A DNA stretch of 64,000 nucleotides, taken from IMG/VR virus record IMGVR_UViG_2788500220_000014, positions 37,405 through 101,404 of that record; one strand, 5' to 3'. Positions within the stretch are counted from its first letter, which is position 1; every line of letters begins with the position of its first letter. The notes under the pieces were generated by a model that worked only from the letters and a program-made list of their open reading frames with translations, was not told the DNA's origin and did not search any database. This stretch comes from a virus (taxonomy: Duplodnaviria; Caudoviricetes). Below are positions 38,567 through 64,000 of the stretch, piece by piece. The position numbers and the translations under genes were made by a program.

Positions 38567-40119
38567 ATCCGGCCGGAAGCGTTCCACCCGGGAGGATATT
38601 CTTCAGCATCCCATGCCGCAGACCACCATCCTAATATGACGTCGGCTTCTATCATGCTAACTCCGTCTACTGTATGATCCCACCCTTCACTCATTGTTCT
38701 TGAGTTAGGTAAATCTTTTAACACAGTAAGACCGACGTCTTCAATCAGGTATTGTTTCGCAACCTGGTGTTCCGTAGCAGTAAGCCTACCCTTTGCGCCG
38801 CGCGCGATGTCGGCATATTGATCATAGATTGTGTCGATATTTCCACAATCATACAACGTCTGAAATATGCTTGCTAATCGATTGACAATATTTCTTTTTA
38901 TCCATGAAGGCTTATCTTCCCACGGGCCAGTAAAGTGCGCATTCTTCCACTTATAGTTTCCTTTATGAGAATAAACTGTCTGAGTTAAATAAGGTGAAAT
39001 AATAAAGTGAGGTGTAATGCCGCTAGGTCCCGTTATAAACTGTTGAGGTTCCGTTAGCCCATATGGTACTGTTAGATAGAGGCCACCATCATAGAGTTCT
39101 GTTTCGTATTGTTTTTGCGTAGGCCTATCCCAGTACTTAGCTGATGCCTCTGGGTTCCAATGAACAGCAAAATTCTCTGGCTTTAGTGTCACCTTCTCTG
39201 GCTTCATAAGCCCCGGGATGCTACAACTTGCAGCAACACCTTTTAGCACAGTAAATTCAGGATCATGATAAGATATTGCTGCAATCGGGGGATGTACACC
39301 TTCGTGAATGTCCCCATTAGGTGTTATATGAGGACCGAGCTGATCTACTAGCACCCCTTCTCTTGTATTCCAAATATTTAACGGCATTTTATTCCATACA
39401 TCAGTTGTAAGCAATGAAACTGGACATAGAAATGATTCCGATGAATTCATATCAAGATACTTTGGAAAAACACTAGCCGTTTTTTCGAAACACACAGAAT
39501 TATTATTTACACCCGTACAGAATATCGTTTTGAGGACCATCATTATTGTTCCAGGATCAGACCAGGGTGGTGAAAACGGGCTCGTTTTCTTACTTGAAGG
39601 TGCCAACAAGAGACATACCCATGCAACTATGTCCCTTATCCTACCCTTATCAGACCATGGTACCTGACATAATTCCCAATATCGCGGAAGCCAGACATCA
39701 AAAAGCCATGCTCGTTGACGGCGTTGTTTCGACCGAACCCAAGGCCAGCGGCTTAAAGGAGATGACAGTTCTAAACTTAATGCAGATAAGAACTCTTTTC
39801 CTGGTCGGCCTATAAATAGGCCACATGCGTATGCAATTGCATTAATACTACCTGCAGAACAACCGGCTATACTTATCACCCGGGGAGGGTACTCATCACC
39901 CTCTGCTGGGCATGACATTATTCTTGCTATACTGCCCGCAATCTCTGGCCAGCGAGACCCGCCGCCAGAAGCACAAACCATCACTGGACGGCGTTTTAAT
40001 ACTACGACGCACTTCTCACATTTACAGACCGGATCGTACTCGCACATATATGACGCGCCACCAGGCAGGAACTCCATTACTTCGCTGGGTATCTCTACCT
40101 TACCTTTTATATTATCCAT
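38563..40119 (-). CDS. patatin-like phospholipase
   Basis: SGGGSR, GCSAG, ASCSIPG, YDGG. Confidence 0.85.
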   Translation of the reverse strand: MDNIKGKVEIPSEVMEFLPGGASYMCEYDPVCKCEKCVVVLKRRPVMVCASGGGSRWPEIAGSIARIMSCPAEGDEYPPRVISIAGCSAGSINAIAYACGLFIGRPGKEFLSALSLELSSPLSRWPWVRSKQRRQRAWLFDVWLPRYWELCQVPWSDKGRIRDIVAWVCLLLAPSSKKTSPFSPPWSDPGTIMMVLKTIFCTGVNNNSVCFEKTASVFPKYLDMNSSESFLCPVSLLTTDVWNKMPLNIWNTREGVLVDQLGPHITPNGDIHEGVHPPIAAISYHDPEFTVLKGVAASCSIPGLMKPEKVTLKPENFAVHWNPEASAKYWDRPTQKQYETELYDGGLYLTVPYGLTEPQQFITGPSGITPHFIISPYLTQTVYSHKGNYKWKNAHFTGPWEDKPSWIKRNIVNRLASIFQTLYDCGNIDTIYDQYADIARGAKGRLTATEHQVAKQYLIEDVGLTVLKDLPNSRTMSEGWDHTVDGVSMIEADVILGWWSAAWDAEEYPPGWNASGRI

Positions 40120-45214: not shown

Positions 45215-46276
45215 CTAATTTGAGCCTTGCTCAAACTTTCTTAATAGTTCTCTTTGCTCTGATGTTATCTTTTTTGGAATTTGAATTTCAATGTGTACAT
45301 AATGATCTCCGTACATAGAGCCCCTAAGGTTCTTAATCCCCTTGCCATGAATTCGCAAAGTTGTATTAGGTTGAGTTCCGAACGGTACCTTTATTTTTTC
45401 ATTTCCCTGAACTGTTTCAACATCCAAAACTCCACCCAAGCATGCAGTAACAAAAGATATTCTAGATGTTGTATGAATATCGGTACCCCTTCTTTCAAAT
45501 TTCCTAGATGGGTTAATTTGAATAGACGCCATTAAATCGCCAGGGGGGCCGCCCAATGAACCAGCATTTCCTTTTCCTGCAACTCGTAAACGATTTCCTA
45601 CGTTGATGCCAGGGGGAATGTTGATAGCAATGCTATCAGTAACATCGATGCTACCAACGCCGCGGCACATACTACAGGGGGTTGTCGGTATAGAGCCCGA
45701 CCCCCTGCATTTTGGACATGCAGACTGTACTACCATAGGGCCTTGTTGAAAACTAGAATATCCTGTACCACGACACATATCACATACGGTACGTGATGTA
45801 TTAGGCTCCTGACCTAAACCAGTGCATCCAGTACATGTGTCTTTTCTGGTAAGATTTATTGACTTTTGGCAACCCTTAACTGCCTCTAAAAAATCGATTG
45901 TTAAACTAATATTGATATCCGGGCCACGTTGGGGCCCCTGGGGACGTGTCTGGTGGTGGCCGCGGCGACCAAAAAATTCACCAAATATATCCTCAAATCC
46001 CCGGAATGGATCTGAGTGTTGTGATGATCTTCTATATTGATTATCAAATGGATTAGGCCCGGAATGACCAAAAGCATCATAGTCTTTGCGCTTCTGCTCG
46101 TCAGATAATGTTTGATATGCCTCGGAAACTTCCTTAAATTTGTCTTCGGCCGTTTTATCACCAGGATTCTTATCAGGATGATACTCTAAAGCTGCCTTCC
46201 GATAGGCTTTTTTAATCTCTTTGCTATTAGCAGTACGAGCTATACCAAGCACCTCATAATAATCGCGCTTGGCCAC
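45215..46276 (-). CDS. dnaJ: molecular chaperone DnaJ (full class A architecture)
   Basis: [12 protein letters not shown], four CxxCxGxG repeats, C-terminal domain. Confidence 0.96.
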
Positions 46277-47993: not shown

Positions 47994-48217
47994 CTACAAT
48001 CTGCTGCATTATAATATTTGTACGATTTTCCCCTGCGGACGACTGTATAAGGCACCTGGGCAAAGTCTTCGATAATTAACTTTATCATACTCTCATCTAT
48101 ACCTGTCTCATATGATAACTTGTCTAAAGACTTAAACTTCATATAACTTAATGCAGAATTAATCGTATGCCATTGATCTTCAGTCCATGGCACTTTCTTT
48201 TTCTTAGGCATCCTCAC
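47990..48217 (-). CDS. hypothetical protein
   Basis: Operon packing. Confidence 0.55.
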   Translation of the reverse strand: MRMPKKKKVPWTEDQWHTINSALSYMKFKSLDKLSYETGIDESMIKLIIEDFAQVPYTVVRRGKSYKYYNAADCR

Positions 48218-48887
48218 TCCTTACGAACTGACCATCGAACCCACAACAATGATACCTTGTCCCTAAAATATCCCATGTCTTCTTAACATGATGATGACCA
48301 AAATACCAAACAGGGGGCTTATGACTACACACCCTCAATGCATTATCTAGATTACGTGGGGTAGGGCTGTCAGCCCTAGCATACTTCTCCATTGGGACCC
48401 GAAGAGGGGCATCATGAGTAACTACGACATCGGGCTTCTCTAACTCCAGTCTCTCGGCAAACAGCGAAAACTCCTGATAGCTTGGTGTTTCATTTCTCCA
48501 CCAACTCTTCCCCTCGGTACGATGATACCGATCGATCGATTCCGCACCACCAAGAAACAAATGCTTCTTTCCCTCCAGGGTAAGTACAACCCCCCGCTGG
48601 GCCCAGAAACACCCAGGTGCCAGCTCTACCAAGTCCGGATTTCCCTGCTTCTTTGCAAGCTCGGTCCACTTATCCCAATTATCATGATTGCCACCACATG
48701 TAATCCACATAGGTGCATCCTTTGGGCGTTTTGAAAAGTATTTATGGATCTTACATGGATCACCACCCCAACGGGCACCAAAATCACCAACCTGAACCAC
48801 GTGTGATGCGTCATCCTTAATTGCAATTGCGTCTACAGTTGCGACATCTTGTGCAACACCGTGGATATCTCCAACATAATAAATCAT
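48204..48887 (-). CDS. calcineurin-like metallophosphoesterase
   Basis: GDIHG, VGDFG, GNHD, THDAP, FGHHH. Confidence 0.92.
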   Translation of the reverse strand: MIYYVGDIHGVAQDVATVDAIAIKDDASHVVQVGDFGARWGGDPCKIHKYFSKRPKDAPMWITCGGNHDNWDKWTELAKKQGNPDLVELAPGCFWAQRGVVLTLEGKKHLFLGGAESIDRYHRTEGKSWWRNETPSYQEFSLFAERLELEKPDVVVTHDAPLRVPMEKYARADSPTPRNLDNALRVCSHKPPVWYFGHHHVKKTWDILGTRYHCCGFDGQFVRSEDA

Positions 48888-50036: not shown

Positions 50037-50444
50037 TTAGTCAGAAATGCCAAGCCAACCAGTTGGAACATGGATACACTCACAATCCTCATGAAGCCGA
50101 ATAAGCTCTTCTTCATCATCATCATGATGCCTTAAAGACCCAAGCCGCTTAATTGTATCTGCTTTCCATTCACCGTTTGTAAAATGGATACCCGAAATCT
50201 GGCCAAAGATACCTTCACTTCTTAGAAAATCAGAAACGCGAGGGGCATCATGGTGCCCTACTTTTTCGAACTTTTCATGACGTGAAGTAACAATATGTAC
50301 TTCATTCCCCATATCTAGGTGAGCCTTAAGACATTGAACCATCACAAGATTTGGGCCCATATGAACAAAATCTTCATTCTCTTCATCCCATCTTGAGACA
50401 GTAAGTGTTTGATCAAAGTCAAATGTAACTAGCATAATATCCAT
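50037..50444 (-). CDS. HAD-superfamily phosphatase-like protein
   Basis: FDFDQTL, IVTSR, K, HDDD. Confidence 0.85.
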   Translation of the reverse strand: MDIMLVTFDFDQTLTVSRWDEENEDFVHMGPNLVMVQCLKAHLDMGNEVHIVTSRHEKFEKVGHHDAPRVSDFLRSEGIFGQISGIHFTNGEWKADTIKRLGSLRHHDDDEEELIRLHEDCECIHVPTGWLGISD

Positions 50445-50700: not shown

Positions 50701-51315
50701 TTAAGATTTCTTAAAATCCCCCATTAGACGATCATCTTTCTTAAGTTCTTTACCTAAATTCCCAAGATCATTTTGAACTTTTGAATACGCAAATGAAGGA
50801 CGTGCAAGAGAATCACTGTATGGATCGAAGTGCAGTTCTGGGGCATCGTCATCGACAAACCAAAGTTTTCCTGCATCTGGACTATACCTTGTCGTTATTT
50901 CTTCGCCTGCCTCTATTTCTCGCTTTGTTCGAAAAATTAACGCATTATACCCAGATCTTTTATCTGCCTCCTTAGATCTACCAGGAAGTTCATTTTCTGA
51001 AATGATGTCCCAAAAAGCATTTGGTTCATGTCGGTGATTGTATATGCCAGACCACCCTAGAGGAAATGCAATCAGGCCGGGCCCGAAACCAAACACATAA
51101 TCCATAAAAATATGGCGTGTGCCGGCTGCGCAACAAAATTCATTCAATGTATGAAGTGTATCAACATGGGCAATTACAACCGGTGCAGATTCAATAACCT
51201 CATGTTTCGGAATTTTTTCAGTAGCGAATACACCAATTCCATGAATATCTGAGTCACGAATTTCAAGTTTATGACTAATAAACCATTTTTTGACTTCTTC
51301 TTTTTCGCGAAACAT
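50701..51315 (-). CDS. SET-domain protein-lysine methyltransferase
   Basis: S.IHGIGVFA, YNH..PN, I.AGEEIT..Y. Confidence 0.9.
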   Translation of the reverse strand: MFREKEEVKKWFISHKLEIRDSDIHGIGVFATEKIPKHEVIESAPVVIAHVDTLHTLNEFCCAAGTRHIFMDYVFGFGPGLIAFPLGWSGIYNHRHEPNAFWDIISENELPGRSKEADKRSGYNALIFRTKREIEAGEEITTRYSPDAGKLWFVDDDAPELHFDPYSDSLARPSFAYSKVQNDLGNLGKELKKDDRLMGDFKKS

Positions 51316-51566: not shown

Positions 51567-52394
51567 TCAGCCCTTAGTATTAATATCATCAATATTTCCT
51601 AAAAATACCAATAATGCTGCATGTGATATAGATAATGATATTACCGGAAGACGACTATGTACAGCCTGAACTACGCCGACAACTTGGCCCCTAGAATTAA
51701 CAATCGGTGAACCTGAAGATCCTGGAGCTGCGAATAAAGTATACATACCTAATGCGCTTTGATTTCTTGGTGTGCCACTAAAGTACCCAGAAAATAATGG
51801 TAATGTCCCTGGGAATCCGCGTTCAGAACTTACACTCAATGGATTCCCAGCATACCATACCATATCACCCCATGTGGGGGCACTGGAAGAAATACTCAAA
51901 ACAGGAGTACCCCTTGGTACATTAACGGGTAAGAAACAAACATCATTGCCAATATTGCATTTAGGTGATCCAGCTAATTCAAGCGGAGGATGATTTAATC
52001 TTATAAGGTCAAAGGATGTTGCTGTAGCAACTACACCCTCTAGTTGATCCGGGTCATGAAAATCGCGAGGATCCAATATTATTCCATGAGCTGCTGTTAA
52101 GACGCCAGTATTTCCTTGAGGGGTTCGTATAAGAGTACCAGATAATGATACTGAGCCTACCATTTGAGGCATACATGTTCGAAGGTTTTGTGGATCCGTA
52201 CAATTTGATAATTTTATCATCATCATTGTTGTGCGGATTCTTACGAACGAATTTTGAATATTTTCAGTTGATGTAGATGAAAGCCAAGTAGGGCCAGAGT
52301 GCCGAGGTTGAGATGAACGGTGGCCAAGGGTTGCACAAGAACTAATTAATGTTATTGCAACTAGGGCTAAAACTATCTTTATAAACTGTTTCAC
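51567..52394 (-). CDS. trypsin-like serine protease lipoprotein
   Basis: Lipobox ISSC; LTAAH, D, PGSSGSP. Confidence 0.88.
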   Translation of the reverse strand: MKQFIKIVLALVAITLISSCATLGHRSSQPRHSGPTWLSSTSTENIQNSFVRIRTTMMMIKLSNCTDPQNLRTCMPQMVGSVSLSGTLIRTPQGNTGVLTAAHGIILDPRDFHDPDQLEGVVATATSFDLIRLNHPPLELAGSPKCNIGNDVCFLPVNVPRGTPVLSISSSAPTWGDMVWYAGNPLSVSSERGFPGTLPLFSGYFSGTPRNQSALGMYTLFAAPGSSGSPIVNSRGQVVGVVQAVHSRLPVISLSISHAALLVFLGNIDDINTKG

Positions 52395-52483
52395 ATACGG
52401 ATTCCGCGTAAAGAAATAGAATCGATCAAATGACTCCTAAATTTAATTATTAGTTTAGATAATTTTTACAGTAAAAAAAAGGC

Positions 52484-54364
52484 CTATATGCCCTTAAGAG
52501 CTAATTCTTTAATCGTATTAACGGATTTTCCGGTTTCATGAAGAATACCCAGGCCTCCTGCAGCATTCCATGTGCTAATCGTACTAGCTTTATCATCAAT
52601 TAAAATATTTGAAATACCAGCCGTAACAGCATACTCGGATTTCATTTTTGCAGAACGAACTATTACCTCTGAAGGAACTGGGCTTAGCCACTTGGTAGTC
52701 CACTGCTTTTTCCCATCTGCAGCCGTTGGAGCATCAATTCCATTACGCATATTGATAGGTGCAGTAAGTAACTTAACATCAAATCCAGAATTATTAATAT
52801 ATGACCATAATGCTCCGATACCGTCGTCTAAGGGTAGAAGACTAGCAAAAAAAGCTCCAGGTGCAAAACTAATTGCCGCATACATCAATGTACGTACAAA
52901 GGGTAAGTTAAGATCTTTCTTTGTTCGAGGGCGCCAACGGGGTCCTGAAGTATCATTTATATTTCTTATCGCCCTTCGCATAGACTTAGAATTCTGAACC
53001 CAGTCGGCACCTACAGTACCATCTAAAATCTTGCTGCAAAGCTCAATAGCACCGGTTTCAAAATCAACCAACACACCATCCATATCACAATATATTGTTG
53101 ACTTGGGTGTTATATCAGGTTCCCTATTATTATTTTGCTGTTGTTCATGCTCAAGTTCTTCGTTTAAAATAGACCTGATTAGGGCACGAACTTCTCCTAC
53201 TAATGTGCTATATGCTTCAGCCTCTGCATCATTCATTGCCTTACCTATGGCCGGCCCCTTTATCCCCTGGGCCATAAGATCCTTAGGATTAACTGCTGGT
53301 GGTGCATCGGCAAACTTTAGAAAAGCCTGGATGATGGATTCCGAAGGTGCACCCATAACCCTTGAGTACTCCTTAACCGTCGTCAACTGAATATCGAATC
53401 GGTTGTAATCTTTCTTAAGGGACGGTGCTGACTCCTTTGATATAGTTCCAAACCCGAGTAAGAACCGAATTGCTTTTTGTTCATCATTCGAGTATGTCAT
53501 ATTCTTAAGAACTGTGGAAACGGCGTCCTTAGAATTGTAGCTAAGGATTGCTGCAATTTGTGCTATAGGGTCGCTCGTTGAAGCCGGCATAATTTTTATA
53601 TCTAATCCAGGAAAAATCTGTCTAAATAAGCCTAACTCTTTTGTTAAATGCAGAAAGTGATTTACATCCTTGGCGGATGATATCCCCTTTATAAACTCAT
53701 CCCTAATTCTTTCAGGTGAAACTTCACTCAATGTATTGTCATTAAGAATGGCCTGCTTAGTCTCTGGATCTAAATCGGATCCCATTCTGCCGGCGAATCT
53801 TACGGCACGCAGAATTCTTAGGGGATCCTCATCGAATCTCTCGGCCGGATCGCCAACTGCCTTAATGACCCCATTTTCAATATCGCTTATGCCACCGACA
53901 TAGTCAACCACCTCACGTGTATCCATATCATAGAAGAGTGCATTGATCGTAAGGTCTCTTCGATTGACATCATCCTCGATTGTCGTAAACTTCACAGAGT
54001 CCGGACGTCGGCCCTTGCCAATATCTTCTCTAAATGTTGCTATCTCATATTCGCCACCCGCGCGCGTCTTCACCCTTACAACACCAAATGATTCACCAGT
54101 TAAATCAAGTCGCAACTGGCCTTGGCTCTGTAGTATCTGGATAACCTTATCAGGGACGGCATCGGTTGCCAGGTCATAGTCCTTCGGTGTCTTACCAAGC
54201 AGCACATCACGTACGGCACCACCAACAACATATAATTGTTTTCCGGCACCCTTCATTCGTTTATGAATATCCTGCAAGTCAGCAGGTATTGGCAGATCCA
54301 TGGATTGTCTCACCGGTTCCTCCAGCGTCATTGCTTCTCTTATGTAAGCATATAATATATTCAT
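52484..54364 (-). CDS. cca: CCA tRNA nucleotidyltransferase fused to 5'(3')-nucleotidase-like HAD domain
   Basis: VGGAVRD..KDYDLAT, RRDLTINA, EDPLRILRAVRF, ERI; C-terminal YCDMDGVL..LIDD. Confidence 0.9.
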   Translation of the reverse strand: MNILYAYIREAMTLEEPVRQSMDLPIPADLQDIHKRMKGAGKQLYVVGGAVRDVLLGKTPKDYDLATDAVPDKVIQILQSQGQLRLDLTGESFGVVRVKTRAGGEYEIATFREDIGKGRRPDSVKFTTIEDDVNRRDLTINALFYDMDTREVVDYVGGISDIENGVIKAVGDPAERFDEDPLRILRAVRFAGRMGSDLDPETKQAILNDNTLSEVSPERIRDEFIKGISSAKDVNHFLHLTKELGLFRQIFPGLDIKIMPASTSDPIAQIAAILSYNSKDAVSTVLKNMTYSNDEQKAIRFLLGFGTISKESAPSLKKDYNRFDIQLTTVKEYSRVMGAPSESIIQAFLKFADAPPAVNPKDLMAQGIKGPAIGKAMNDAEAEAYSTLVGEVRALIRSILNEELEHEQQQNNNREPDITPKSTIYCDMDGVLVDFETGAIELCSKILDGTVGADWVQNSKSMRRAIRNINDTSGPRWRPRTKKDLNLPFVRTLMYAAISFAPGAFFASLLPLDDGIGALWSYINNSGFDVKLLTAPINMRNGIDAPTAADGKKQWTTKWLSPVPSEVIVRSAKMKSEYAVTAGISNILIDDKASTISTWNAAGGLGILHETGKSVNTIKELALKGI

Positions 54365-54367
54365 TGT

Positions 54368-54397
54368 ATTATACTCCTGAGAACTGAAGATTTACAC
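54368..54397 (-). promoter_or_regulatory. phage promoter GTGTAA-N18-TATAAT abutting cca start
   Basis: Conserved motif. Confidence 0.55.
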
Positions 54398-54399
54398 GA

Positions 54400-54645
54400 T
54401 TAAATCCAGATTTTAATACAGCCATAATTTAAAAGGCTTTCAGATCTATTTACATCATATTGATCTAGTATCGATAAAACAATTTTCTTCATTTTATCTG
54501 AATTACCGGTGATGATATAAGCTTCCTCTAATTTACTCCAATGATCTGATAGAAAGTTGTGGCACTTTGCCTCTACATCCTCATGATTTGTACCATGAAG
54601 ATCAAGGGAAGGGGCGGGACGCTTCTTTTTATTTTTTCTTGCCAT
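54400..54645 (-). CDS. Smr/MutS2 C-terminal domain protein
   Basis: LDLHG..IITGNS..N.G. Confidence 0.88.
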   Translation of the reverse strand: MARKNKKKRPAPSLDLHGTNHEDVEAKCHNFLSDHWSKLEEAYIITGNSDKMKKIVLSILDQYDVNRSESLLNYGCIKIWI

Positions 54646-54976
54646 AAACTTTAGCTAAGCCCTCTTCTAGAAGCCAGTTGTTAATCGAAAGCTCTTCTTC
54701 ATTTTCATTAATGAATATCTCACCAAGCCAGCGGCCATACTTCCCACGCTTGTCTTTTGTAGTTTTTACCTTAACCCATTTATTTCCTATTTTTGCGCGA
54801 AGGGCATCCCTAGACTTAAGACCCTCTGGCCGCTCGGGACCTCGGACCTCTGGAGTATTAATGCCCAAAAGCCGAATCTTCTGTCCTCCTAAAGTTATTC
54901 CAAACCCTAGATCAAAATCGACAGTAATGGTATCACCATCATAAACTTTGCGAACAAATGCTCTATATTCATACAT
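54629..54976 (-). CDS. thermonuclease (SNase-like)
   Basis: VYDGDT, IRLLGINTPE, GKYGRWLG. Confidence 0.92.
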   Translation of the reverse strand: MYEYRAFVRKVYDGDTITVDFDLGFGITLGGQKIRLLGINTPEVRGPERPEGLKSRDALRAKIGNKWVKVKTTKDKRGKYGRWLGEIFINENEEELSINNWLLEEGLAKVYGKKK

Positions 54977-55054
54977 GATAATATTTTCCTATAGTAAAAA
55001 CTGTTTGTGATAATCTTTCATGAAGACTGGAGGCGGGCCAACTCCTGACCCGTA

Positions 55055-56209
55055 TCATTGTGCCATTCCTAATATAAGCAGCAATAATAAGGGCATGCCT
55101 ATTACAACAGCTAATAATACCCAAACCCACAATTTAACTTTCTGTTCAGGTGCCTGTTCAATCTTTTTAGGAGGCTTAGGATCTGGGTTATCTATCAGTC
55201 CCCACACTTCTATCATGTGACCATTCCTTGGGCCTGTAGGCGGACATGAATTTGAGCGCATGCGCCAAAAATCATTATAGCTCATTAATAAATACCCGGG
55301 AGGTAAATCCGGATCATTGGATGGAAGAAGCCCCCAGCTGTTTTGTATTATGAATCCTTTCTTATTCCATCCGATGATTGTCATAGCATGGCCGCCTTGC
55401 CATACACCTTCGCCTTGTTGGGCCCAAAAGTTTGAAGATGGATTGATTGCCCATACACCCCTATCCACTTCAACATTTGCATAAACAGAGACACCGAGGA
55501 GAAGCGGGCCAATTTTCATAAGTGCATGTTTAATACGCTGACATGCATCCCACCCCTTAGAGTCTAAAATTCGTTTAGGCAAATCAAATTGTACATACAC
55601 TTGATTGTTGGTTTCATTATAGAACTTTGTACGAAAATCTTTTGTTAGCTCTTGCCAGCCATCAGGCCATGCTTCTAGGGGGACAAATGGATCTTGCCAA
55701 CCATCGCTCATATCCTTGTCCGTCCAGTCTTTGTTGTATTCAAATATTCCAGGCGTTTCTGATCTACTTTTAATGACTTCCCATACATCCTCTGGACAAG
55801 GCATACCATACTTTATTGCAATCGATGCCGCCGTACGACCAGACATACCGGCGCTACACAACCACCTCTTAACACCTGCAATCGATTCGGTCATATATTT
55901 CTCTTGACCAGCTGGCCCACGTAGCAAATAATGTGAGACGGGAGAATACTTTACATATTTTCCTGTATCTCGCTCTTGTTGGATTTCCCTAACCTTCGTT
56001 ACAGCATGAGATGCACAGGAACCCCATTTTAGCTGATCTAAGACATCGTCATCAATCGATGAAGCAAAATACTCAATTGGAAACTCTTGATCGTCAATTA
56101 TTGCATAATCGGTATAAGAATAATCCCTAGTATCTTCAGAACTTGGCACAGTTCCTAAAAATACCTGTTGCCCTGTAGTAAGAATTGATGTTTTTGCCTT
56201 TTGGGTCAT
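55055..56209 (-). CDS. C1 papain-family cysteine protease with C-terminal TM anchor
   Basis: DQ..GSC, GGHAM, QNSWG. Confidence 0.9.
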   Translation of the reverse strand: MTQKAKTSILTTGQQVFLGTVPSSEDTRDYSYTDYAIIDDQEFPIEYFASSIDDDVLDQLKWGSCASHAVTKVREIQQERDTGKYVKYSPVSHYLLRGPAGQEKYMTESIAGVKRWLCSAGMSGRTAASIAIKYGMPCPEDVWEVIKSRSETPGIFEYNKDWTDKDMSDGWQDPFVPLEAWPDGWQELTKDFRTKFYNETNNQVYVQFDLPKRILDSKGWDACQRIKHALMKIGPLLLGVSVYANVEVDRGVWAINPSSNFWAQQGEGVWQGGHAMTIIGWNKKGFIIQNSWGLLPSNDPDLPPGYLLMSYNDFWRMRSNSCPPTGPRNGHMIEVWGLIDNPDPKPPKKIEQAPEQKVKLWVWVLLAVVIGMPLLLLLILGMAQ

Positions 56210-57072
56210 CTCTTTTTTCTCCGTTTTTGACGAGCAAGTACTTTACCTTGCTCCTTACTTATATCAACACCCATTCCCTTTCGGATTGTTTGCACAACTT
56301 CTTTATACATTTCCATCATCATCTTAACATCAGCTAACGCATTATGCCAATCATCAATATTGATGCCGTAAGCCTTTGATACTACACCCATTGATACAGA
56401 GTGATATCCCCAATTACCTTTCTTTATATACAGCTTATCAAGCAACTCCTGGGCCTCTGAGTCCCCTTCTCCTGCTCTCGTTTGGGTCTTTAATAGGGGA
56501 ACAAGGTAGTATTGCATGAGTTGCATGGTGTCTAGGACAGGATACTTCGGTAAGCTACCCTTTGATCTTACGTTTAGAAACTTTAAATCAAATGAAGCAT
56601 TCTGGGCGATGAATAATGGGTTTGGAAACCCGGCAGCCCATTCGAAAAAGTTGCCTAAGACTTCTTGCTCATCGCCGTATGTTCGGCCTTTTTCTCCATA
56701 TCGGGTCATAGCCAAGACTGCCTGAGGGTCTTTTAGCGGGCGCCGTGATTGTGAATTTTTCTTTTCCCACTCTTTTCGCTCTTCTGATTCTGGGTCATTC
56801 ATCAAGCGATCAGTTTCATCAGTGAACTTTATCTTCTCATTAAATTGGTCAAGCATTGTAGCATCCGACTGCCATGCATTTGGATCTACTGCAATTGCCC
56901 CTATCTCTGTTAACTGTGCAGAATTAGGGTGCATTCCTGTCGTCTCAGTATCAAAGAAGATCCATGTATTGTCAGCATATCCGTCGAGCAAATCTAGCAC
57001 ACCCTTAACTGTGCGGCCGGATAACTTATTCTCCACCAGCAATTCTCTTATGTACTCACGAAGTAGATTCAT
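56206..57072 (-). CDS. leader-tagged DEDDh 3'-5' exonuclease
   Basis: MNLLREYIRELLVE; DTETTG, NASFD, DT, HNALAD. Confidence 0.9.
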   Translation of the reverse strand: MNLLREYIRELLVENKLSGRTVKGVLDLLDGYADNTWIFFDTETTGMHPNSAQLTEIGAIAVDPNAWQSDATMLDQFNEKIKFTDETDRLMNDPESEERKEWEKKNSQSRRPLKDPQAVLAMTRYGEKGRTYGDEQEVLGNFFEWAAGFPNPLFIAQNASFDLKFLNVRSKGSLPKYPVLDTMQLMQYYLVPLLKTQTRAGEGDSEAQELLDKLYIKKGNWGYHSVSMGVVSKAYGINIDDWHNALADVKMMMEMYKEVVQTIRKGMGVDISKEQGKVLARQKRRKKR

Positions 57073-57743
57073 TCTGACAGGTCCTTTATCATCCAATCGA
57101 TTGCCGTATTTAGTGTGTACGTAGTCGCCTGGAGCTGTTCATTTCCATAAGCATTTTTATGACGTTTGATTGTCTTTGTATCATCCCAATCCTCAACGCT
57201 CTCCAATAATGCCTCTGCAAGATAAATTATGGAAAGATATGCTAGCTTTCCTACTTCAAAAACAGAGTCTGGAAATTCCTGCTCGCTGGCCTTGACGCTT
57301 TCAAGCCTTGATAACTTTTCAGTTGCATTAGCAATTAACTTAGGAGAAACATCACGGATATCCTGTACAGCTCTCTCAGCTGTTTCTCTCATTCTATCTT
57401 GATACTCTTCCTTATATTGAGTTACATCATTGAGCTGCATAACATACACGTCTTTTGAGTACTCAGAAACAACATCCATCATGATGCCTATTTCTTCGTT
57501 AAGGTGTTCTTCTTCAACTCGGGCCATTGCATGCCACTCTGTCTTACCGTCATACCCAACCCTCTTTCCTAAAGATCCTAAAATACAATGTGCAGCCTCC
57601 GCATACCTTGCAGCTCCTACGTTATACTCCATTATACTATTATATCCACCAGACGATGGAATTCCCCCATAGTTATGCCCCCTAATTGGGCACATATTTT
57701 CATTAATAAGCAAGGTGCGTATATATGTACGTAATAAACTCAT
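57069..57743 (-). CDS. leader-tagged hypothetical protein
   Basis: MSLLRTYIRTLLINE. Confidence 0.8.
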   Translation of the reverse strand: MSLLRTYIRTLLINENMCPIRGHNYGGIPSSGGYNSIMEYNVGAARYAEAAHCILGSLGKRVGYDGKTEWHAMARVEEEHLNEEIGIMMDVVSEYSKDVYVMQLNDVTQYKEEYQDRMRETAERAVQDIRDVSPKLIANATEKLSRLESVKASEQEFPDSVFEVGKLAYLSIIYLAEALLESVEDWDDTKTIKRHKNAYGNEQLQATTYTLNTAIDWMIKDLSE

Positions 57744-58267
57744 TAGAAATTCACCGCCCCTATAACATCAACATCTGGATACTGTTTTTCCATTTTGTCT
57801 TTGAGGTGACCTATCTCCTGTCGCATCATCTTACCAAAATGAATTAACATACCTGGCTTTGCATACCTTTTAAAGAACTCATCCATTAGTTGGCTAGCCA
57901 CCTTCTGGCCACCTTTGTCACCGCGGGTCTTCATATAATCGATATACCAGCCGTTGTCACCGTATTTATGAAAATCCAGAAATCCTATGACGCAAACGTC
58001 TGAAACACCGGGGACCATTTGGCCCTTGCGAGGCTTCTTTAACCTTCTGCCTGATCGGCCATAATGATCCCACTCTTGATATTCATTAAAATATGCATCA
58101 CGCATTGGCTTACCGGTCGGTGACATATTGGGTTCCTTTACTGAAGTATCGCAAAGTGCTAATCTTTTTACATTCCTTGCTCTGGCATATGTAAGAGGAG
58201 AGTCAAGCTCTCTAAACTCAATACCCTCTGCCAAAACTTCTCTTATGTATTTCTTTAATAAAATCAC
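57743..58267 (-). CDS. leader-tagged GNAT-like protein
   Basis: ILLKKYIREVLAE; IGFL..YIDYM..GQKVASQLM. Confidence 0.65.
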   Translation of the reverse strand: MILLKKYIREVLAEGIEFRELDSPLTYARARNVKRLALCDTSVKEPNMSPTGKPMRDAYFNEYQEWDHYGRSGRRLKKPRKGQMVPGVSDVCVIGFLDFHKYGDNGWYIDYMKTRGDKGGQKVASQLMDEFFKRYAKPGMLIHFGKMMRQEIGHLKDKMEKQYPDVDVIGAVNF

Positions 58268-58279
58268 TTTATAGATCCC

Positions 58280-59143
58280 TTAATATGCCATGTAGGTTTC
58301 CCAAAAGCCCTCACCATGTTTATCTTCCCACTCAGCATACTCACCTCTAGAATTATTACCATCTGGGAAAATAAATCTAGAGCCATCCTTCATAATAATT
58401 TCCCAATTAATCCCATTAAATGGTTCATCATGATCTGAATAAGTAGATATTGATTTTAAATGAGATTTCCCAATATCTCTATCGTACATAATCCCCAAAA
58501 TTGTATAAATATCTTGCATAGTCTTACGAGAAGGAGACGATCCAGCAGCATTAGGCATCGGGCCTGTTGTCGTAACAGTTACTGCAGTTACCCACTTTCC
58601 GCGGTCACGGTTCATATTTTTAAACCTTTTTAATTCTACCTTTGTACCAGCAGGAAGATTGTCAATTTTCTTTGCGAATCTGTCACCGGACTTTTTCCAC
58701 TTATCAAAAATTAACTCATCTGCATAAGAATGAAGACCAGAACGATTTCCGAGGCCTGGCCAGATATTTTTTCCAGCGACTGTTACCCGGTTTCCTTCTT
58801 CTGCCCAGTTTAGTATTTCTTGTGTTGGATCACCTGATCCTATTTGATCACCATACGATTCTCGGATGCGGGCTGCGCCACTTAAATAGTACCAGTCAAC
58901 GGCCGCGTTGACATCCTCATCTGTAAACTCACCTGGATATGCAGCCTTAGCATCATCAACCGCTATAGCATTAGAGTCACTCCATGTAGAATACCCAAGA
59001 TCAAACCCCATTTCTTGAATCATATCTAAAACTTCTTGAAAGCGGCGCGCGCGGTGTTGATCTATATTCAGTGATGGATCAGGGCCTTCTGTAATAGATT
59101 TCCGAATTAACTTTCGTAATCGTGATTTGGTTATTTTTATCAT
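58280..59143 (-). CDS. leader-tagged hypothetical protein
   Basis: MIKITKSRLRKLIRKSITE. Confidence 0.8.
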   Translation of the reverse strand: MIKITKSRLRKLIRKSITEGPDPSLNIDQHRARRFQEVLDMIQEMGFDLGYSTWSDSNAIAVDDAKAAYPGEFTDEDVNAAVDWYYLSGAARIRESYGDQIGSGDPTQEILNWAEEGNRVTVAGKNIWPGLGNRSGLHSYADELIFDKWKKSGDRFAKKIDNLPAGTKVELKRFKNMNRDRGKWVTAVTVTTTGPMPNAAGSSPSRKTMQDIYTILGIMYDRDIGKSHLKSISTYSDHDEPFNGINWEIIMKDGSRFIFPDGNNSRGEYAEWEDKHGEGFWETYMAY

Positions 59144-59161
59144 ACTAAAACTCTCCTAACA

Positions 59162-59620
59162 TCATCTAGGTACCTCTTCTATTCTACCACATATAACTAT
59201 GGGGGGTATAGGCTCAAAATCCCCTAAGCCAAAATCATTCGACATCTCTGGTCGACCGGCAGTCTGGGGATTCGTTGCAATGGTTATATGAGGATAAGAT
59301 ATACCAAGTGTATATAAAGGCAGATCACCAAGCTCAACTAGCCCAGTAATAACCTGATCATTCTTTGCGATTCCAACTATAGTTACACACTCTTCTGAGC
59401 CAATCCACCTAGATGGTAATCTATGCTTTGATTGTTGTCCGGATGCAGGTGATATTATAGTCATATGATGTGAGTGCAATTTCCATTTCTCAGGAGATAG
59501 TTTGGATAGTTCTTGATGAGATGTGCCATCTAAAACGAGTGCTGTATACTCTATGCTTTTATCAGGTGTTAAGTACATCTCAGATAACAGTTCCTTTATG
59601 TATACGCGTAGTAAATTCAT
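59162..59620 (-). CDS. leader-tagged 2H phosphoesterase
   Basis: MNLLRVYIKELLSE; HHMTI and PHITI; P..SN. Confidence 0.8.
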   Translation of the reverse strand: MNLLRVYIKELLSEMYLTPDKSIEYTALVLDGTSHQELSKLSPEKWKLHSHHMTIISPASGQQSKHRLPSRWIGSEECVTIVGIAKNDQVITGLVELGDLPLYTLGISYPHITIATNPQTAGRPEMSNDFGLGDFEPIPPIVICGRIEEVPR

Positions 59621-59826
59621 TATTCTTTTCTCCTATGTGAATAATCATTCCAGCCTTGGATCTTTTTACACATAGAATCTAGATTGAAGCTCTCCGGGGG
59701 GCTCCAGAATGGAAGTATTCCATGAAGGATAAGAAATATGCTACTCAACCCTAAATGAATTGCAACCTTACCGGCAAAGATTAGGTGGCTTATATACGTC
59801 TCGTTATTTTCCCTAAGGTGCTTCAT
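59620..59826 (-). CDS. DUF6356-like small membrane protein
   Basis: HL.EN.ETY..H..FA..HG..PF. Confidence 0.7.
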   Translation of the reverse strand: MKHLRENNETYISHLIFAGKVAIHLGLSSIFLILHGILPFWSPPESFNLDSMCKKIQGWNDYSHRRKE

Positions 59827-61889
59827 TTTCCGTCCACCATATTGACTATCTCTTTGATTGTGGCAGTATATACATCAATTCCCTCATCAGACATCTCTTG
59901 AATAAACTGCCTAAACTCTTCTTCACTAGGGTGATTCGGCATACCCCTACGTTGGTAATACTTTTTCCAGATATATACATTCTTGACCTGAATCTTATCC
60001 ATGACTATTTCGTCATACATTTTTAGTCGATGATAACTATCACTTGGCAGCTTGACTGAATCAACCACTGCCTCCCTAAGTGTGCCAGCATACTTCATCA
60101 TAACTTTCTCTGCTGAGTCTAAATAGTGCTTAATCATCGAGTTGAGCTGAACTTTATCACGCCGGCGGGCAACTTCACGCCATGTATCTAGCCCAGTACC
60201 TGCTTCAGGTTCATTTTTTTCTAGCCACCCGTTTATCGATGACAACAAGTCTTTTTTCATGGGATCAGTAATACTGGGATCCTTAACTAATCTCACAATA
60301 TATTCCATTGTAATATTTCTTCTGCCACCCTTCTCTGGAAGGGTGAACATGTCTTCCATACCTGATGCTATTTGTTGTCCCTCTACCTCTATGACAACTC
60401 CGCCCCTGGCAGTAATGCCCCCTTTTATAAAGTCAGCATTAGCTCCCCTAGTAAACACAGATGCTTGTTTGGAGGTACCCCTAATATCCAATAAACCGTA
60501 TGCCCCATTTAAGTTAGTAATGTGATAACCTTTCACCTCTTGTTTAAGACTCCCAAATATTCTGGTCATCATTTGTGAGCCGAGAGGAAGGAACATATCA
60601 TCTTCATCTCGAAATTGAATCATTGTTGAGTAACTTTCCTGATTTATAATCTTTTGCTTTTTTCCATACTTCTCAGTCAAAATCCTTTCGGTGTAAAGGC
60701 CATCTCCCTCATAAATAAATTCATTACGCTGATTAAATGCCAGCCCCTGAGCATCTCCTAAAATTTCGACCTCGGCCATACATTCGTTACGTGCTCCACC
60801 CATGATATCTGAGCCGGACCATGAAGGGAGAATATCTGATAGTTCTGGTACCCAAAACCCATAGTCCTCTAGATCATCAAATAGTAATTCACTAACCCCT
60901 ATCTTTTCAACATCTTCTTCATCTAAGTCCCGAATATCTTGAACATTATTATCAATCATATATTCAACAATCTTTACAACTGACGTTCTATCAAAACAAA
61001 CGTTCGAATCCATTACATCACGAAAAAAACCATACCCCTTATCAAAGAAAGTTGCACCTGACATGAGATCATCAAACAGCTCTTCGTCATAATCTAACTT
61101 TTCAAAATAGTAATGACGTAAGTCATCTTCAGAGACCATTCCTAAAGTATCGGCACCATTATATAAAAATAAAACCTTATTATACTCGTTGGCCGCATGA
61201 AGAAGGTCACCTATGTCGAATGAGAATCCGCTCTCGTATTCAGGTTGAACATCAACCACCACCACACTTCCGCTTGATGCTTGCTCCAACAAGGTGTGTG
61301 TGTACAATTCCATAAGGCCTAAAGATTTAAGAAAATTCTCTTGATTGTCTTTGTCAGATTGCTCCATACCCTCTTTATCAAGCAGCATATTTCTTCTGTT
61401 GGCAGTCTCCCAGCTATACTCATTAGACTCTTTCATCCATGCATCGCGATCCTGCATCATCGCATAGAGATCATCGTCCCATGGGCCTTCTCCACCTTTC
61501 ATGGCACAATTGAGTATAGCTTCTTCAGCAGTAAATTCTTTGTATACCTCAGGTTGGTACATGTCGTAATAGGCCTCTTTGTCAACTCCATTCGGTTTAG
61601 TTACCTTGGTCTGATCATCAAAAACCAGATCGCCCATCTCGACCCAACCGTGGACAACTGGCTTTGGAGGACTCTTCCATTTGTTTGTTACTGTACCATG
61701 AACAACCTTAAACTTGCTCTTGTCATTTAAGTCCGGATGCTTCTTTGCCGATCGGCCTGGCCTTCCCTTGGTATAGTATTTCTCAAACCATTCCTCGGCT
61801 TTCTGGTATGCAAAGGGAAAGCACATGCCTGTGGCAAGGACGTTTTGCTCTTTAAGGAGTTCCCTTATGTACTCACGGAGAAGTTTCAT
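59823..61889 (-). CDS. leader-tagged multi-domain protein (Cys-His-Asp hydrolase-like + isochorismatase-like + possible ART-like)
   Basis: MKLLREYIRELLKE; GMCF/HGWVE/FD; VVDVQP..GG..EC; YHIT..S..DEIV. Confidence 0.7.
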   Translation of the reverse strand: MKLLREYIRELLKEQNVLATGMCFPFAYQKAEEWFEKYYTKGRPGRSAKKHPDLNDKSKFKVVHGTVTNKWKSPPKPVVHGWVEMGDLVFDDQTKVTKPNGVDKEAYYDMYQPEVYKEFTAEEAILNCAMKGGEGPWDDDLYAMMQDRDAWMKESNEYSWETANRRNMLLDKEGMEQSDKDNQENFLKSLGLMELYTHTLLEQASSGSVVVVDVQPEYESGFSFDIGDLLHAANEYNKVLFLYNGADTLGMVSEDDLRHYYFEKLDYDEELFDDLMSGATFFDKGYGFFRDVMDSNVCFDRTSVVKIVEYMIDNNVQDIRDLDEEDVEKIGVSELLFDDLEDYGFWVPELSDILPSWSGSDIMGGARNECMAEVEILGDAQGLAFNQRNEFIYEGDGLYTERILTEKYGKKQKIINQESYSTMIQFRDEDDMFLPLGSQMMTRIFGSLKQEVKGYHITNLNGAYGLLDIRGTSKQASVFTRGANADFIKGGITARGGVVIEVEGQQIASGMEDMFTLPEKGGRRNITMEYIVRLVKDPSITDPMKKDLLSSINGWLEKNEPEAGTGLDTWREVARRRDKVQLNSMIKHYLDSAEKVMMKYAGTLREAVVDSVKLPSDSYHRLKMYDEIVMDKIQVKNVYIWKKYYQRRGMPNHPSEEEFRQFIQEMSDEGIDVYTATIKEIVNMVDGK

Positions 61890-62652
61890 CTTTTAACTCC
61901 TGGAATAAGCTGTAGAACCGCTTAACGTATCTTTTCTTTGTTTTCTCCGAAACTTTGCTCAAACGAAGTGGCTCGTAATTGAGATCAAATAGGTATTTTT
62001 GAAAATCCCTAAAGTCATCATTCTCTATAGCCGACCGCAATTTATCTCCTGTGTGACCTTTATCATCTCTGATAGCTTTTCGTGTAGAAGATATGATGGG
62101 AATAAGGCGAGCTTGTACTTCTTCTGTAGAGTCCTCATAAGCCTGTTTAGAAATATCAAACTGATCATCTCCACCAGCAGCCCTATATTTTTTGTCACCC
62201 GAGCGTGTCTTATTGATCTGATGAGTGAGTTCATGTTCTAAAATTGAAATGACTTGGGGGTCATTCGCAAAATAGCTTAACGCATTACCGGATTTTTGTA
62301 CCTTCTCAAAGACCGGTGGCGTAGGAAATATCTGCAACTCATTATCCGGAGTTATTTCTGCTCTCTTTTTGAGATAGCGAGAATTCGGATCCTTATTGGG
62401 ATTGATGATTGTGACAAAGAGTTCTTCGAACCCGTCAATCAAATCGGTACCTTCCTCAGGTAGCGGCATCTCTTTCATCTCATAGACTTTATAAACCATA
62501 CCGGAACCATCAACACCAAATTCTGGTCCTACATCAGCAAAATTTGAGCCAGATCTCATGCTAGAAATAATGGTGTCAATAAGATCAACATATTGCGAAT
62601 CCGATTTTCTTTCGGTCAACAGCTCTCTTATATACTCGCGTAGTAGTTTCAT
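61873..62652 (-). CDS. leader-tagged HExxH zincin-like protein
   Basis: MKLLREYIRELLTE; LEHELTH..EEVQAR. Confidence 0.75.
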   Translation of the reverse strand: MKLLREYIRELLTERKSDSQYVDLIDTIISSMRSGSNFADVGPEFGVDGSGMVYKVYEMKEMPLPEEGTDLIDGFEELFVTIINPNKDPNSRYLKKRAEITPDNELQIFPTPPVFEKVQKSGNALSYFANDPQVISILEHELTHQINKTRSGDKKYRAAGGDDQFDISKQAYEDSTEEVQARLIPIISSTRKAIRDDKGHTGDKLRSAIENDDFRDFQKYLFDLNYEPLRLSKVSEKTKKRYVKRFYSLFQELKDETSP

Positions 62653-63323
62653 AGTTTCACCAACCTGCCTGCAGAACTAAGCGCATCTAAAGTTGGTGAT
62701 CCAGTCGACTTATACAACTTTGATAGAGGGCTCTGTAATAAAATATCTTTACCATAAGGATCCCAAGGAGTCTCTTCATTCTCTTCATCCCAAAAATAAC
62801 CATCTTGATGCTCGTACGATAACCACTGCGGGCAATCGTCCCCCTTTGTCTCTGGTGTGAGACGACCAGATAAATCGTCTAACTGAATAGTGATTACATC
62901 TGGACGACGAGTGGCATAATAGTTCCAAATAGAATATGCATCGCTAGAAATGTTTCTTCTATCTGGTAGTAAACCGCTTCCTTCAGCAGTTGCAGTTTCC
63001 ATTGCAATATCATAAAGCATAGGACCAAATCCTTTAGCTTCATCATCAACATGAGCCCAACTAATCTCATATCCCCCTAGACAATCAGCTTCATCTGATT
63101 TAACTGCAGAAAGGATACCGATAGATGCCCTATTCATAATAGATGTCATGCCTAGATTTTTAGAAGAATTATTTTTCCAGTAGTCTACCTCTTTAGGATC
63201 CGCAATCCAGATCTCTATATCTCCATCATCTCTACTTAAATACACCTTCATATTACCGAGAGACTCGGGGCCCTTTGCAGCTTCCCTAATTAGCTCTTTT
63301 ATGTACTCACGTAGGAGGGTCAT
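62649..63323 (-). CDS. leader-tagged GNAT-like protein
   Basis: MTLLREYIKELIRE; KGFGPMLYDIAME..DR..S.DA..W. Confidence 0.7.
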   Translation of the reverse strand: MTLLREYIKELIREAAKGPESLGNMKVYLSRDDGDIEIWIADPKEVDYWKNNSSKNLGMTSIMNRASIGILSAVKSDEADCLGGYEISWAHVDDEAKGFGPMLYDIAMETATAEGSGLLPDRRNISSDAYSIWNYYATRRPDVITIQLDDLSGRLTPETKGDDCPQWLSYEHQDGYFWDEENEETPWDPYGKDILLQSPLSKLYKSTGSPTLDALSSAGRLVKL

Positions 63324-64000
63324 TCTCCGCTCCATATCTCGTTTTGTGATCTGTCGAAGATAGGTACGCCTATTTCACGAGCTAGCTTAATTATCTTTCC
63401 AACTCTGCCAGGTGGATCTTCATCAAGATCGCGACCCTTATTTAGTCTCTTTAATATTTGTATGACTTCATAGTCTGGAATGAGGCCTAAGGGTTTCCAA
63501 TTATCAACCAGCGCTTCACCACCATGAGACACTGAGTCCCACATCGATTGATCTAATACGTACGGAATATTACGAGCCATCTTTTCAGCAAACTCATTAC
63601 CACGTGTAAGTTGCCCATAACGACTATAGTCCTTCGACACAGTCGGTCGCTTATTTCTTCCGGAAGACTTATCTCTATGTGTGACCTCTTCTTCAGAACC
63701 CTCTTTCCCAAGGCCATAATCATCATAGTGGCCGGTATAGAGATTATCCATATCATTACCTGCTAGTGTGATTCTTCCTTTTACCCATAGACCAGTATTG
63801 CTTCCACTTATTGCAAAGTCTTCACCAGGTAAACTCATAAGTGTAGATAGCTCATCTTTGCCCTTACCTATCAAATCTTCTAAGGCATATACATCGCCCC
63901 AATGTACTGTGTTTAGGGTTGATAGCCATTTGTGATCTGCATTTTTTGCAAAGGCACGCTTAATTGCTCTACCCCCGCCTTTTCCAGGATCACCACCAAA
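63320..64000 (-). CDS. hypothetical protein, 5' end beyond window (possible ART-like fold)
   Basis: Frame open to 64000; TVHW..ELST..GL.VKG..D.LYT..EALVDN. Confidence 0.7.
   Translation of the reverse strand, partial: FGGDPGKGGGRAIKRAFAKNADHKWLSTLNTVHWGDVYALEDLIGKGKDELSTLMSLPGEDFAISGSNTGLWVKGRITLAGNDMDNLYTGHYDDYGLGKEGSEEEVTHRDKSSGRNKRPTVSKDYSRYGQLTRGNEFAEKMARNIPYVLDQSMWDSVSHGGEALVDNWKPLGLIPDYEVIQILKRLNKGRDLDEDPPGRVGKIIKLAREIGVPIFDRSQNEIWSGE

Follow-up and report, generated by a model that had tools for sequence, protein, structure and literature searches.

A 64,000-nucleotide stretch of phage DNA, here called the window (bases 37405–101404 of contig C25), carries at positions 52484–59620 a closely packed series of genes, all on the minus strand, several of whose products begin with a similar short leader peptide. 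Three of the tagged products, encoded within 7 kb, are a CCA-type nucleotidyltransferase fused to a HAD module (CCA-HAD), a DEDDh exonuclease and a 2H phosphoesterase. A preliminary description of this stretch had named these proteins and read them as a kit, injected at infection, for the repair of tRNA ends; their identities and coordinates are borne out by Pfam, PHROG and PDB matches, by invariant motifs and by predicted fold.

The tagged enzymes and their partners in other phages

The CCA-HAD protein has 626 residues (52484–54364). Its leader, MNILYAYIREAMTLEE, occupies residues 1–16 (54317–54364) and includes two cut-type motifs, IRE and LEE; untagged homologs begin right behind it, at PVR. 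The nucleotidyltransferase module that follows (53150–54316) matches PF01743 at 5.8e-36 over positions 1–125 of 126, and the RNA-binding neck family PF12627 at 9.4e-09. The metal motifs of the head are present (VVGGAVRD...DYDLAT), and the nucleotide-selecting motif D (EDxxRRD) reads IEDDVNRRDLTINAL and is aligned to the same motif of 3aqm. The CCA/poly(A) enzymes of known structure 6ibp and 3aqm match at about 1e-37. Among the NCBIfam models, the CCA model NF009814 (198.5 bits) aligns over positions 12–384 of 396, including the body and tail, whereas the pcnB model TIGR01942 (197.2 bits) aligns over its first half only, that is, head and neck, both scores being below cut-off; NF008137 matches the head domain. 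The protein is thus predicted to be a class II CCA-type tRNA nucleotidyltransferase of the Pol-beta superfamily.

The CCA module ends in a leader-like helix, VRALIRSILNEE, at the junction with the HAD module (residues 391–403, 53156–53194). Most standalone CCA enzymes of the clade also end in such a helix (..ELRMYIRELL or ..LVRIYINMLLRS; examples are P0078, P0143 and P0167), including some without an N-terminal leader, and it may represent a C-terminal tag, a cut site or a recombination scar in leader DNA.

The HAD module itself (52487–53095) is NT5C-like. It matches phrog_2643, which carries a deoxyribonucleotidase name, at 1.4e-18, and its motifs DMDGV, LLTAP and LIDDK align to the mitochondrial deoxyribonucleotidase 4mum (E 0.017). 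The NT5C family PF06941 was found below its gathering score (E 0.14, 12.4 bits versus a cut-off of 24.8), and HAD_SAK_1 (PF10307) gave no match to this module at E ≤ 10.

The 2H phosphoesterase (152 residues, leader-tagged, 59162–59620) has two HxT motifs, HHMT (H51/H52-M-T54) and HITIA (H111-I-T113), which are invariant across 26 homologs. With its AlphaFold2 model (pLDDT 86.6), the top PDB folds in Foldseek were the CNPase catalytic domain (probability 1.00, TMq 0.64) and the kinase-cyclic phosphodiesterase (CPD) region of fungal Trl1. The best viral fold matches were giant-virus proteins of the RNA-ligase type, and Acb1 models ranked lower (TMq 0.42–0.51, root-mean-square deviation 7–9 Å). 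The only Pfam match was the tRNA ligase CPD family, PF08302, at 15.7 bits versus a cut-off of 23; of four kinase-2H fusions from phages that were tested, two score above it (23.8 and 25.8 bits). In other lineages the same 2H domain follows an AAA_33 P-loop kinase, which is the order of the healing half of Trl1. An Acb1-type identity was rejected as first choice, given the poorer fold match and the lack of any PF23474 match at E ≤ 10. The structural model thus supports a predicted cyclic phosphodiesterase of the RNA-end type (Trl1-CPD/CNPase), and not of the Acb1 type.

The gene neighbourhood of the 2H family was analysed in 80 viral loci around homologs, which group into 58 lineages at 90% identity. 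In 31 of the 58, the gene of a CCA-family enzyme lies within 10 kb of the 2H gene; the two are joined in one reading frame in nine lineages, and their genes are directly adjacent in several more. CCA-2H proteins, of 529–1,873 residues, are also found in phages that do not have the leader (L026, L034, L048 and L076). The third component is linked to the 2H as well, since a tagged standalone HAD abuts the 2H gene in L003–L005 and L013, the one in L003 being a homolog of this HAD with its own leader.

From the side of the CCA enzyme, we inspected the best 120 of 4,282 homologs. Almost all of these are leader-tagged, and about half carry extra modules, among them this 2H (9), HD (7), this HAD (5) and HAD_SAK_1 (5); PF10307 was found on the fusions P0076, P0079, P0080, P0154 and P0184. 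Further partners in this set are Nudix, DUF192, SET and PAP2 domains, and homologs of the 688-, 228-, 174- and 184-residue proteins of the array. HD, HAD_SAK_1 and Nudix may stand in as other end-healing partners. One protein, P0077, contains CCA, 2H and HAD in a single chain, and the CCA-HAD architecture recurs in P0067, P0069, P0070 and P0071. Leader sequences seem to delimit the modules, and the fusions probably arise by loss of the stop codon between adjoining cargo genes; the retained CCA-HAD junction VRALIRSILNEE is likely a protease site. As fusions are promiscuous, the main grounds for linking CCA and 2H are how often they occur together and that they do so in leaderless phages too. 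The comparative data lead us to expect that, in many phages, the CCA enzyme works together with a 2H of the CPD type.

In distant phages (L029, L030, L035, L048, L054 and L076) the CCA domain is embedded in proteins of 1,460–2,021 residues. At their N-terminus they share a conserved segment, G-S-G-x-G-R-I-V-Y, possibly a kinase-like module; the L048 protein has two different 2H domains, and the L076 protein has GNAT and NleE-like domains.

The DEDDh exonuclease (56206–57072; PF00929, 9.4e-10) is leader-tagged, has two helical insertions, and is 288 residues long when counted from its ATG, the listed TTG start at 57096 being upstream of the leader. Its DxE, D and H-x4-D motifs (FFDTETTG, NASFD and HNALAD, comprising D41, E43, D162, H243 and D248) are invariant in 30 homologs, and its sequence is that of a bona fide DEDDh enzyme, DnaQ/PolC/RNase T-like. 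In Foldseek the DnaQ domain and RNase T are level, followed by DinG, PolC, TREX1 and ExoI. Homologs of up to 95% identity were found, nearly always tagged, with any of three leader classes. Members of the family are fused to a 2H of the LigT/Acb1 type in three lineages, and elsewhere to a homolog of the untagged small HAD of the window (P0311, with the HAD in front), to another HAD (P0364) and to a Pol-beta nucleotidyltransferase; in two lineages the exonuclease abuts the NT5C-like HAD. As a 3'-5' exonuclease needs a free 3'-OH, partners that unblock 3' ends are plausible, and the pairing with a 2H suggests ribo-substrates. These partners would be compatible with the trimming of tRNA ends and with the breakdown of nucleotide signals alike. 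Toxins that extend tRNA 3' ends, of the MenT/AbiEii type, exist (PMC10435456, PMC11162799), and that the exonuclease removes the nucleotides they add can at present only be guessed.

The leader as a candidate head-loading tag

The leader M-x-LLREYIRELL-x-E, of which one form is MKLLREYIRELLKE, starts eight genes of the window: those of CCA-HAD, the exonuclease, a 224-residue protein, a 174-residue protein, the 2H and three more up to 63.3 kb. A ninth tagged gene (58280–59143) has another leader type, MKITK..LRKLIRK, and further tagged genes are found on contig C16. The distribution of the leader was determined with a regular expression, requiring a start codon just upstream and an open reading frame behind, over the whole metagenomic bin that includes C25 (33 contigs, 4.9 Mb). 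The strict pattern matched only C25, C16 and C13. A looser pattern added two reading frames of 51–53 residues (on C17 and C20) that are unlike the leader, and no convincing copy was seen in the approximately 4.6 Mb of other contigs.

Identical leader peptides are encoded by different codons, with 7–8 synonymous differences per ten codons among the genes of the exonuclease, a 688-residue and a 259-residue protein, which indicates that selection acts on the peptide. The capsid-targeting sequence of T4 is MKTYQEFIAE, and the T4 internal proteins that bear it are cut once directly behind it (PMC8442874; PMC9958956). MKLLREYIRE is identical to it at five of ten positions (M1, K2, E6, I8 and E10), and position 7 has Y where T4 has F. 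The T4 protease gp21 cleaves after L/I-x-E. Most tagged proteins have I-(R/K)-E at positions 8–10 and/or L-x-E at 12–14, with both present in six of the nine, and the 224- and 287-residue proteins have a single, later [LI]xE (at 13–15 and 17–19, respectively); this motif was not found within the first 25 residues of three untagged neighbours. A prohead protease of the gp21 type is encoded on contig C13 (PF03420, 94 bits), within a portal-protease-core-scaffold-capsid module, and small head-module proteins encoded beside it have leader-like starts. AlphaFold models of both the 2H and the exonuclease show the leader as a detached, low-confidence helix before the well-predicted domain.

Orthologs of the tagged proteins in other metagenomic phages carry this leader, one of the MKITxxQLRxIIKEE type, one of the MKLLxENWRxY type, or none. 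Since the leader classes swap on orthologs, the tag is modular and independent of its cargo. Some exonuclease and CCA homologs (P0191, P0197, P0114, P0116 and P0126) have a further "pre-leader" module of about 35 residues ahead of the leader (M-R/K-K-E/x-P-Q-I-F..PV....L..LE), which also starts two small genes of C16 (34979–35332 and 40858–41415).

Other genes of the array and the phage

Between the three enzyme genes, the stretch encodes an untagged Smr-like protein of 81 residues (54400–54645; PF01713, E 2.4e-05, slightly below cut-off), an untagged staphylococcal-nuclease-like endonuclease of 115 residues (54629–54976; PF00565, 5.2e-11; phrog_452, 6.6e-29) and an untagged papain-like peptidase of 384 residues with a C-terminal hydrophobic anchor (55055–56209; phrog_16701, 1.5e-11; PF00112 weak). 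These are followed by the tagged 224-residue protein, which is acidic (57069–57743; no family found in Pfam, PHROG or NCBIfam), the tagged 174-residue protein, which is a GNAT-like acetyltransferase (57743–58267; Atlas 0.96 to viral GNAT clusters, PF14542 weak), and the 287-residue protein with the other leader class (MIKITKSRLRKLIRK; 58280–59143), for which no annotation was found.

The array continues beyond 59620. A tagged, modular protein of 688 residues (59823–61889) has two parts, residues 1–155 and 215–406, that are separately fused ahead of CCA enzymes in other phages (P0086, P0087, P0116 and P0098), and a short acidic linker (about residues 137–203) recurs at CCA junctions. The tagged 259-residue protein (61873–62652) has an HExxH motif (ILEHELTHQ) and is a candidate zinc metallopeptidase cargo. 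A tagged 228-residue protein (62649–63335) has the motif KGFGPMLYDIAME and a weak Atlas lead to GNAT only. The two tagged GNAT-like proteins are recurrent C-terminal partners of CCA enzymes, the 228-residue one in 9 and the 174-residue one in 4 of the best 120 homologs.

At the other end, a terminator-like hairpin with a T-run (52478–52495, minus strand) lies exactly at the CCA-HAD stop. It was found by a consensus scan only, which returned 23 sites versus about ten expected, and is likely the 3' end of the transcription unit of the tagged array; by analogy with T4, the stretch would be the 3' part of a head-cargo gene array. Beyond the hairpin, on the same strand, lie an untagged small HAD of 135 residues (50037–50444), similar to polynucleotide kinase phosphatases (FDFDQTLT, with DxDxT; phrog_415 "polynucleotide kinase", 4.7e-06; PF08645, E 0.18), and an untagged calcineurin-like metallophosphoesterase of 227 residues (48204–48887; PF00149, 3.3e-10; phrog_1649, 6e-32). 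Both had been noted in the preliminary description and are indeed present, but we do not retain them in the kit: together with the untagged trypsin-like peptidase and SET protein, they probably form a separate unit, and their products are possibly cytoplasmic helpers at most. Genes of this region encode the SET-domain protein (50701–51315), the trypsin-like peptidase, with a lipoprotein-type signal (51567–52394), a full-length DnaJ (45215–46276) and a patatin-like phospholipase (38563–40119); in another phage a SET domain is fused to a CCA-HD protein (P0129).

Outside the window, a second cluster at C25:12618–14300 encodes HD, Nudix and HAD proteins; the HD gene (C25:13082) has a clear leader, and the start of its neighbour, the Nudix gene (C25:12618), resembles a leader more weakly. 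Their relatives are fusion partners elsewhere, HD and Nudix with CCA enzymes and HAD with the exonuclease (P0364).

C25 is a phage contig co-binned with a bacterium. Its start is overlapped by C6, and its region 70229–100728 is 99.9% identical to C16, which then diverges while the same gene array goes on. The divergence (window 63324–64000 versus C16 from 30500 onward) suggests a branching between strains or in the assembly, located within the tagged array, and past it C16 has at least four further tagged genes and then six tRNA genes. Taken together, C25, C13, C16 and C6 are assigned to one uncultured jumbo T4-like phage of more than 230 kb. A nucleotide search of 52484–59620 against 50,697 phage records gave no match.

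The preliminary description had suggested looking through the rest of the genome for tRNA arrays and an RNA ligase. The window itself contains no tRNA gene detected by a tRNA scan, and the phage tRNA genes are the six on C16 (Met-CAU, Lys, Arg, Asn, Pro and Gly), all of which encode CCA; a PP-loop (TilS/QueC-like) gene sits among them. Rnl1, Rnl2 and RtcB were not found in the phage contigs, the sole PF09414 match being on the bacterial contig C14, and four records of related jumbo phages, of which three have a completeness of 96% or more, likewise gave neither Rnl2 nor RtcB. For the array, no RNA ligase match in Pfam, PHROG or NCBIfam and no KxDG motif were detected, though the unannotated proteins may still hide one.

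Interpretation and comparison with known systems

We propose that this phage injects, together with its DNA, part of a ligase-free set for the repair of tRNA 3' ends, delivered as leader-tagged head cargo, a reading for which we see about even chances. The amphipathic leader, of about 14 residues, would dock the tagged proteins onto the prohead core as in T4, and the gp21-type protease would remove it after I-x-E or L-x-E, leaving the mature enzymes in the head to enter the cell with the DNA. There, the 2H would open the 2',3'-cyclic phosphate left by metal-independent RNases, giving a 2'-phosphate and a 3'-OH; the HAD fused to the CCA enzyme, perhaps freed by a cut at the leader-like junction, would take off the remaining terminal phosphate; and the CCA-type nucleotidyltransferase would rebuild the 3' end of the tRNA. 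The DEDDh exonuclease may first trim damaged or wrongly extended ends, such as those made by MenT/AbiEii-type toxins, a place in the pathway that is weakly supported. The substrates and the order of steps are inferred. As CCA is already encoded in the phage tRNAs, the CCA enzyme would not be needed for finishing them, which fits repair better than maturation, and since no ligase was found, the available chemistry fits the rebuilding of 3' ends and not the sealing of breaks. We consider the CCA-2H-HAD core to be reasonably supported.

Several observations weigh against this proposal. CCA-adding and poly(A) polymerase activities cannot be separated by sequence alone, and the fused HAD is nearest to 5'(3')-deoxyribonucleotidases, enzymes with free nucleotides as substrates. 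Profile searches with the exonuclease place RNase T directly behind the top-ranking PolC and DnaQ domains. In 50 loci around exonuclease homologs, a CCA enzyme was found nearby in one and a 2H in one, and the exonuclease family was absent from all 80 loci of the 2H; gene neighbourhood thus led us to reject it as a conserved partner of these two. The pathway put forward in the preliminary description is supported in part, by the linkage of CCA, 2H and HAD (CCA and 2H in 31 of 58 lineages, all three in P0077), and is not upheld for the exonuclease, with the further reservation that the HAD is closest to deoxynucleoside monophosphate (dNMP) nucleotidases. The 7 kb stretch is no dedicated operon, as it also encodes the GNAT, staphylococcal-nuclease, Smr-like and papain-like proteins and two unannotated ones, and the array as a whole mixes in unrelated enzymes. 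Fusion partners also include a YkuD transpeptidase for the exonuclease, and SET, PAP2 and GNAT domains for CCA enzymes. Inside tagged arrays, a fusion may thus tell that both parts are cargo and not that they act in one pathway, and we down-weighted fusion as proof of a pathway after the exonuclease-YkuD and the CCA-SET/PAP2 cases. For the delivery itself, the T4 late promoter TATAAATA showed no enrichment and was not found upstream of the tagged genes, a sigma-70 promoter scan stayed at chance level, and packaging, cleavage and injection of the tagged proteins are only inferred from the T4 analogy.

Much of this would also be expected of a mixed anti-defence cargo in which the enzymes form no pathway, with the 2H acting on 2'-5' or cyclic nucleotide signals, the exonuclease on the DNA of the host or of competitors or on linear oligonucleotides, the HAD on nucleotide pools, and only the CCA enzyme on tRNA. 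The heterogeneous array (GNAT, nuclease, peptidase and unannotated proteins), the promiscuous fusions such as exonuclease-YkuD, the LigT/Acb1-like 2H domains on relatives of the exonuclease and the similarity of the HAD to dNMP nucleotidases all agree with it, and the ligase-free 2H domains of injected polyvalent proteins have been argued to target nucleotide signals (Iyer et al. 2017, PMC5512222). However, the 2H of the window has no Acb1 Pfam match and fits Trl1-CPD/CNPase better, and the family is tied to CCA enzymes and polynucleotide-kinase-like P-loop domains far above chance, also outside tagged arrays. We hold a mixed cargo to be unlikely, if still a serious competitor.

In another explanation, the enzymes are an RNA-repair set that is not injected but works in the cytoplasm after ordinary expression, the leader being a helix for oligomerisation or localisation, or else a side effect of recombination between cassettes. 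Besides the missing late-promoter signal, this would be consistent with the leaderless orthologs and with the many standalone CCA homologs ending in a leader-like helix, which could be a recombination scar. It accounts less well for a leader peptide that is kept despite many synonymous changes, is in register with the T4 capsid-targeting sequence, ends in a T4-type cut motif, belongs to one of three classes interchangeable on orthologs, and coexists with a gp21-type protease and adjoining small head proteins with leader-like starts, and we find it improbable. Finally, the nucleotidyltransferase could be a host-takeover effector, tailing host RNAs for decay or blocking tRNAs like a poly(A) polymerase with the help of the exonuclease. 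In favour of this, E. coli poly(A) polymerase matches its head and neck equally well in PDB and NCBIfam. Against it, the CCA model aligns in full including body and tail, the partners are end-healing enzymes, and the phage, which has tRNA genes of its own, relies on translation by the host; we find this reading very improbable.

Taking the injected repair set more broadly, giant marine T4-like phages might carry in their capsids a ligase-free pathway of cyclic phosphodiesterase, phosphatase, trimming exonuclease and CCA enzyme that pre-empts toxins cutting or extending the acceptor end, with modules that evolve as leader-bounded cassettes, able to join into polyproteins which the head protease would then separate; we offer this wider version as a tentative one, and rather doubt that it holds in full. 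Phage RNA repair is known as a post-infection product (T4 Pnkp/Rnl1), and the known head cargo consists of inhibitors, an ADP-ribosyltransferase and RNA polymerases. If injection of repair enzymes is true, some hosts would attack tRNA 3' ends too early, or too constitutively, for the phage to await its own gene expression, and the leader classes would offer naturally occurring, interchangeable tags with which proteins could be loaded into heads for delivery. We found no publication reporting virions that contain a CCA enzyme or enzymes healing RNA ends, in a literature search that did not reach Burroughs & Aravind 2016 (NAR 44:8525).

The enzymes themselves are familiar, as 2H, HAD, HD, calcineurin-like and CCA enzymes have already been proposed as RNA-repair components of jumbo phages (Iyer et al. 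2021, PMC7824862). The phage RNA-repair or "Swiss-army-knife" systems described there have the same parts list, with opening by 2H, dephosphorylation by HAD, HD or calcineurin-like enzymes and restoration by CCA enzymes, and some CCA homologs of our set carry their HAD_SAK_1 domain (PF10307). In contrast, the HAD of the window is NT5C-like with no PF10307 match, an RNA ligase or RlaP partner was not found, and the leader present here is not mentioned in PMC7824862. Injected polyvalent proteins (Iyer et al. 2017, PMC5512222) likewise are cargo of many domains for which packaging and processing are predicted, and distant relatives join CCA and two 2H domains in proteins of 1,258–2,021 residues. 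That work makes no mention of CCA-adding enzymes, and the array described here consists mostly of separate genes, each with its own leader.

As regards delivery, the closest comparison is with T4 IPI-III and Alt, where an N-terminal tag of about 10–14 residues (M-K-x-x-x-E-aromatic-I-x-E) is likewise found on unrelated cargo and together with a gp21-family protease. The T4 cargo comprises small basic inhibitors and an ADP-ribosyltransferase, whereas here it would be acidic-to-neutral RNA-end enzymes, with several leader classes and apparent polyprotein fusions. T4 Pnkp-Rnl1, which counters the PrrC anticodon nuclease, is likewise a counter-measure against tRNA damage that uses a HAD phosphatase, but it is made after infection and seals breaks of the anticodon loop with a ligase; here a ligase was not found, and the logic would be one of 3'-end rebuilding.

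For the 2H, the best structural match is with CNPase and the kinase-CPD healing module of the fungal/plant tRNA ligase Trl1, and its phage relatives share the kinase-CPD order, whereas the protein of the window has neither a ligase nor a kinase domain and, with 152 residues, is much smaller. The E. coli CCA enzyme reportedly combines a CCA head with an HD domain that has 2',3'-cyclic phosphodiesterase, 2'-nucleotidase and phosphatase activities. The coupling of CCA addition to 3'-phosphate removal would thus be shared with the phage proteins, among whose homologs HD-CCA fusions are frequent; in the window, where the CCA enzyme has no HD domain, healing would instead fall to a separate 2H and a fused HAD.

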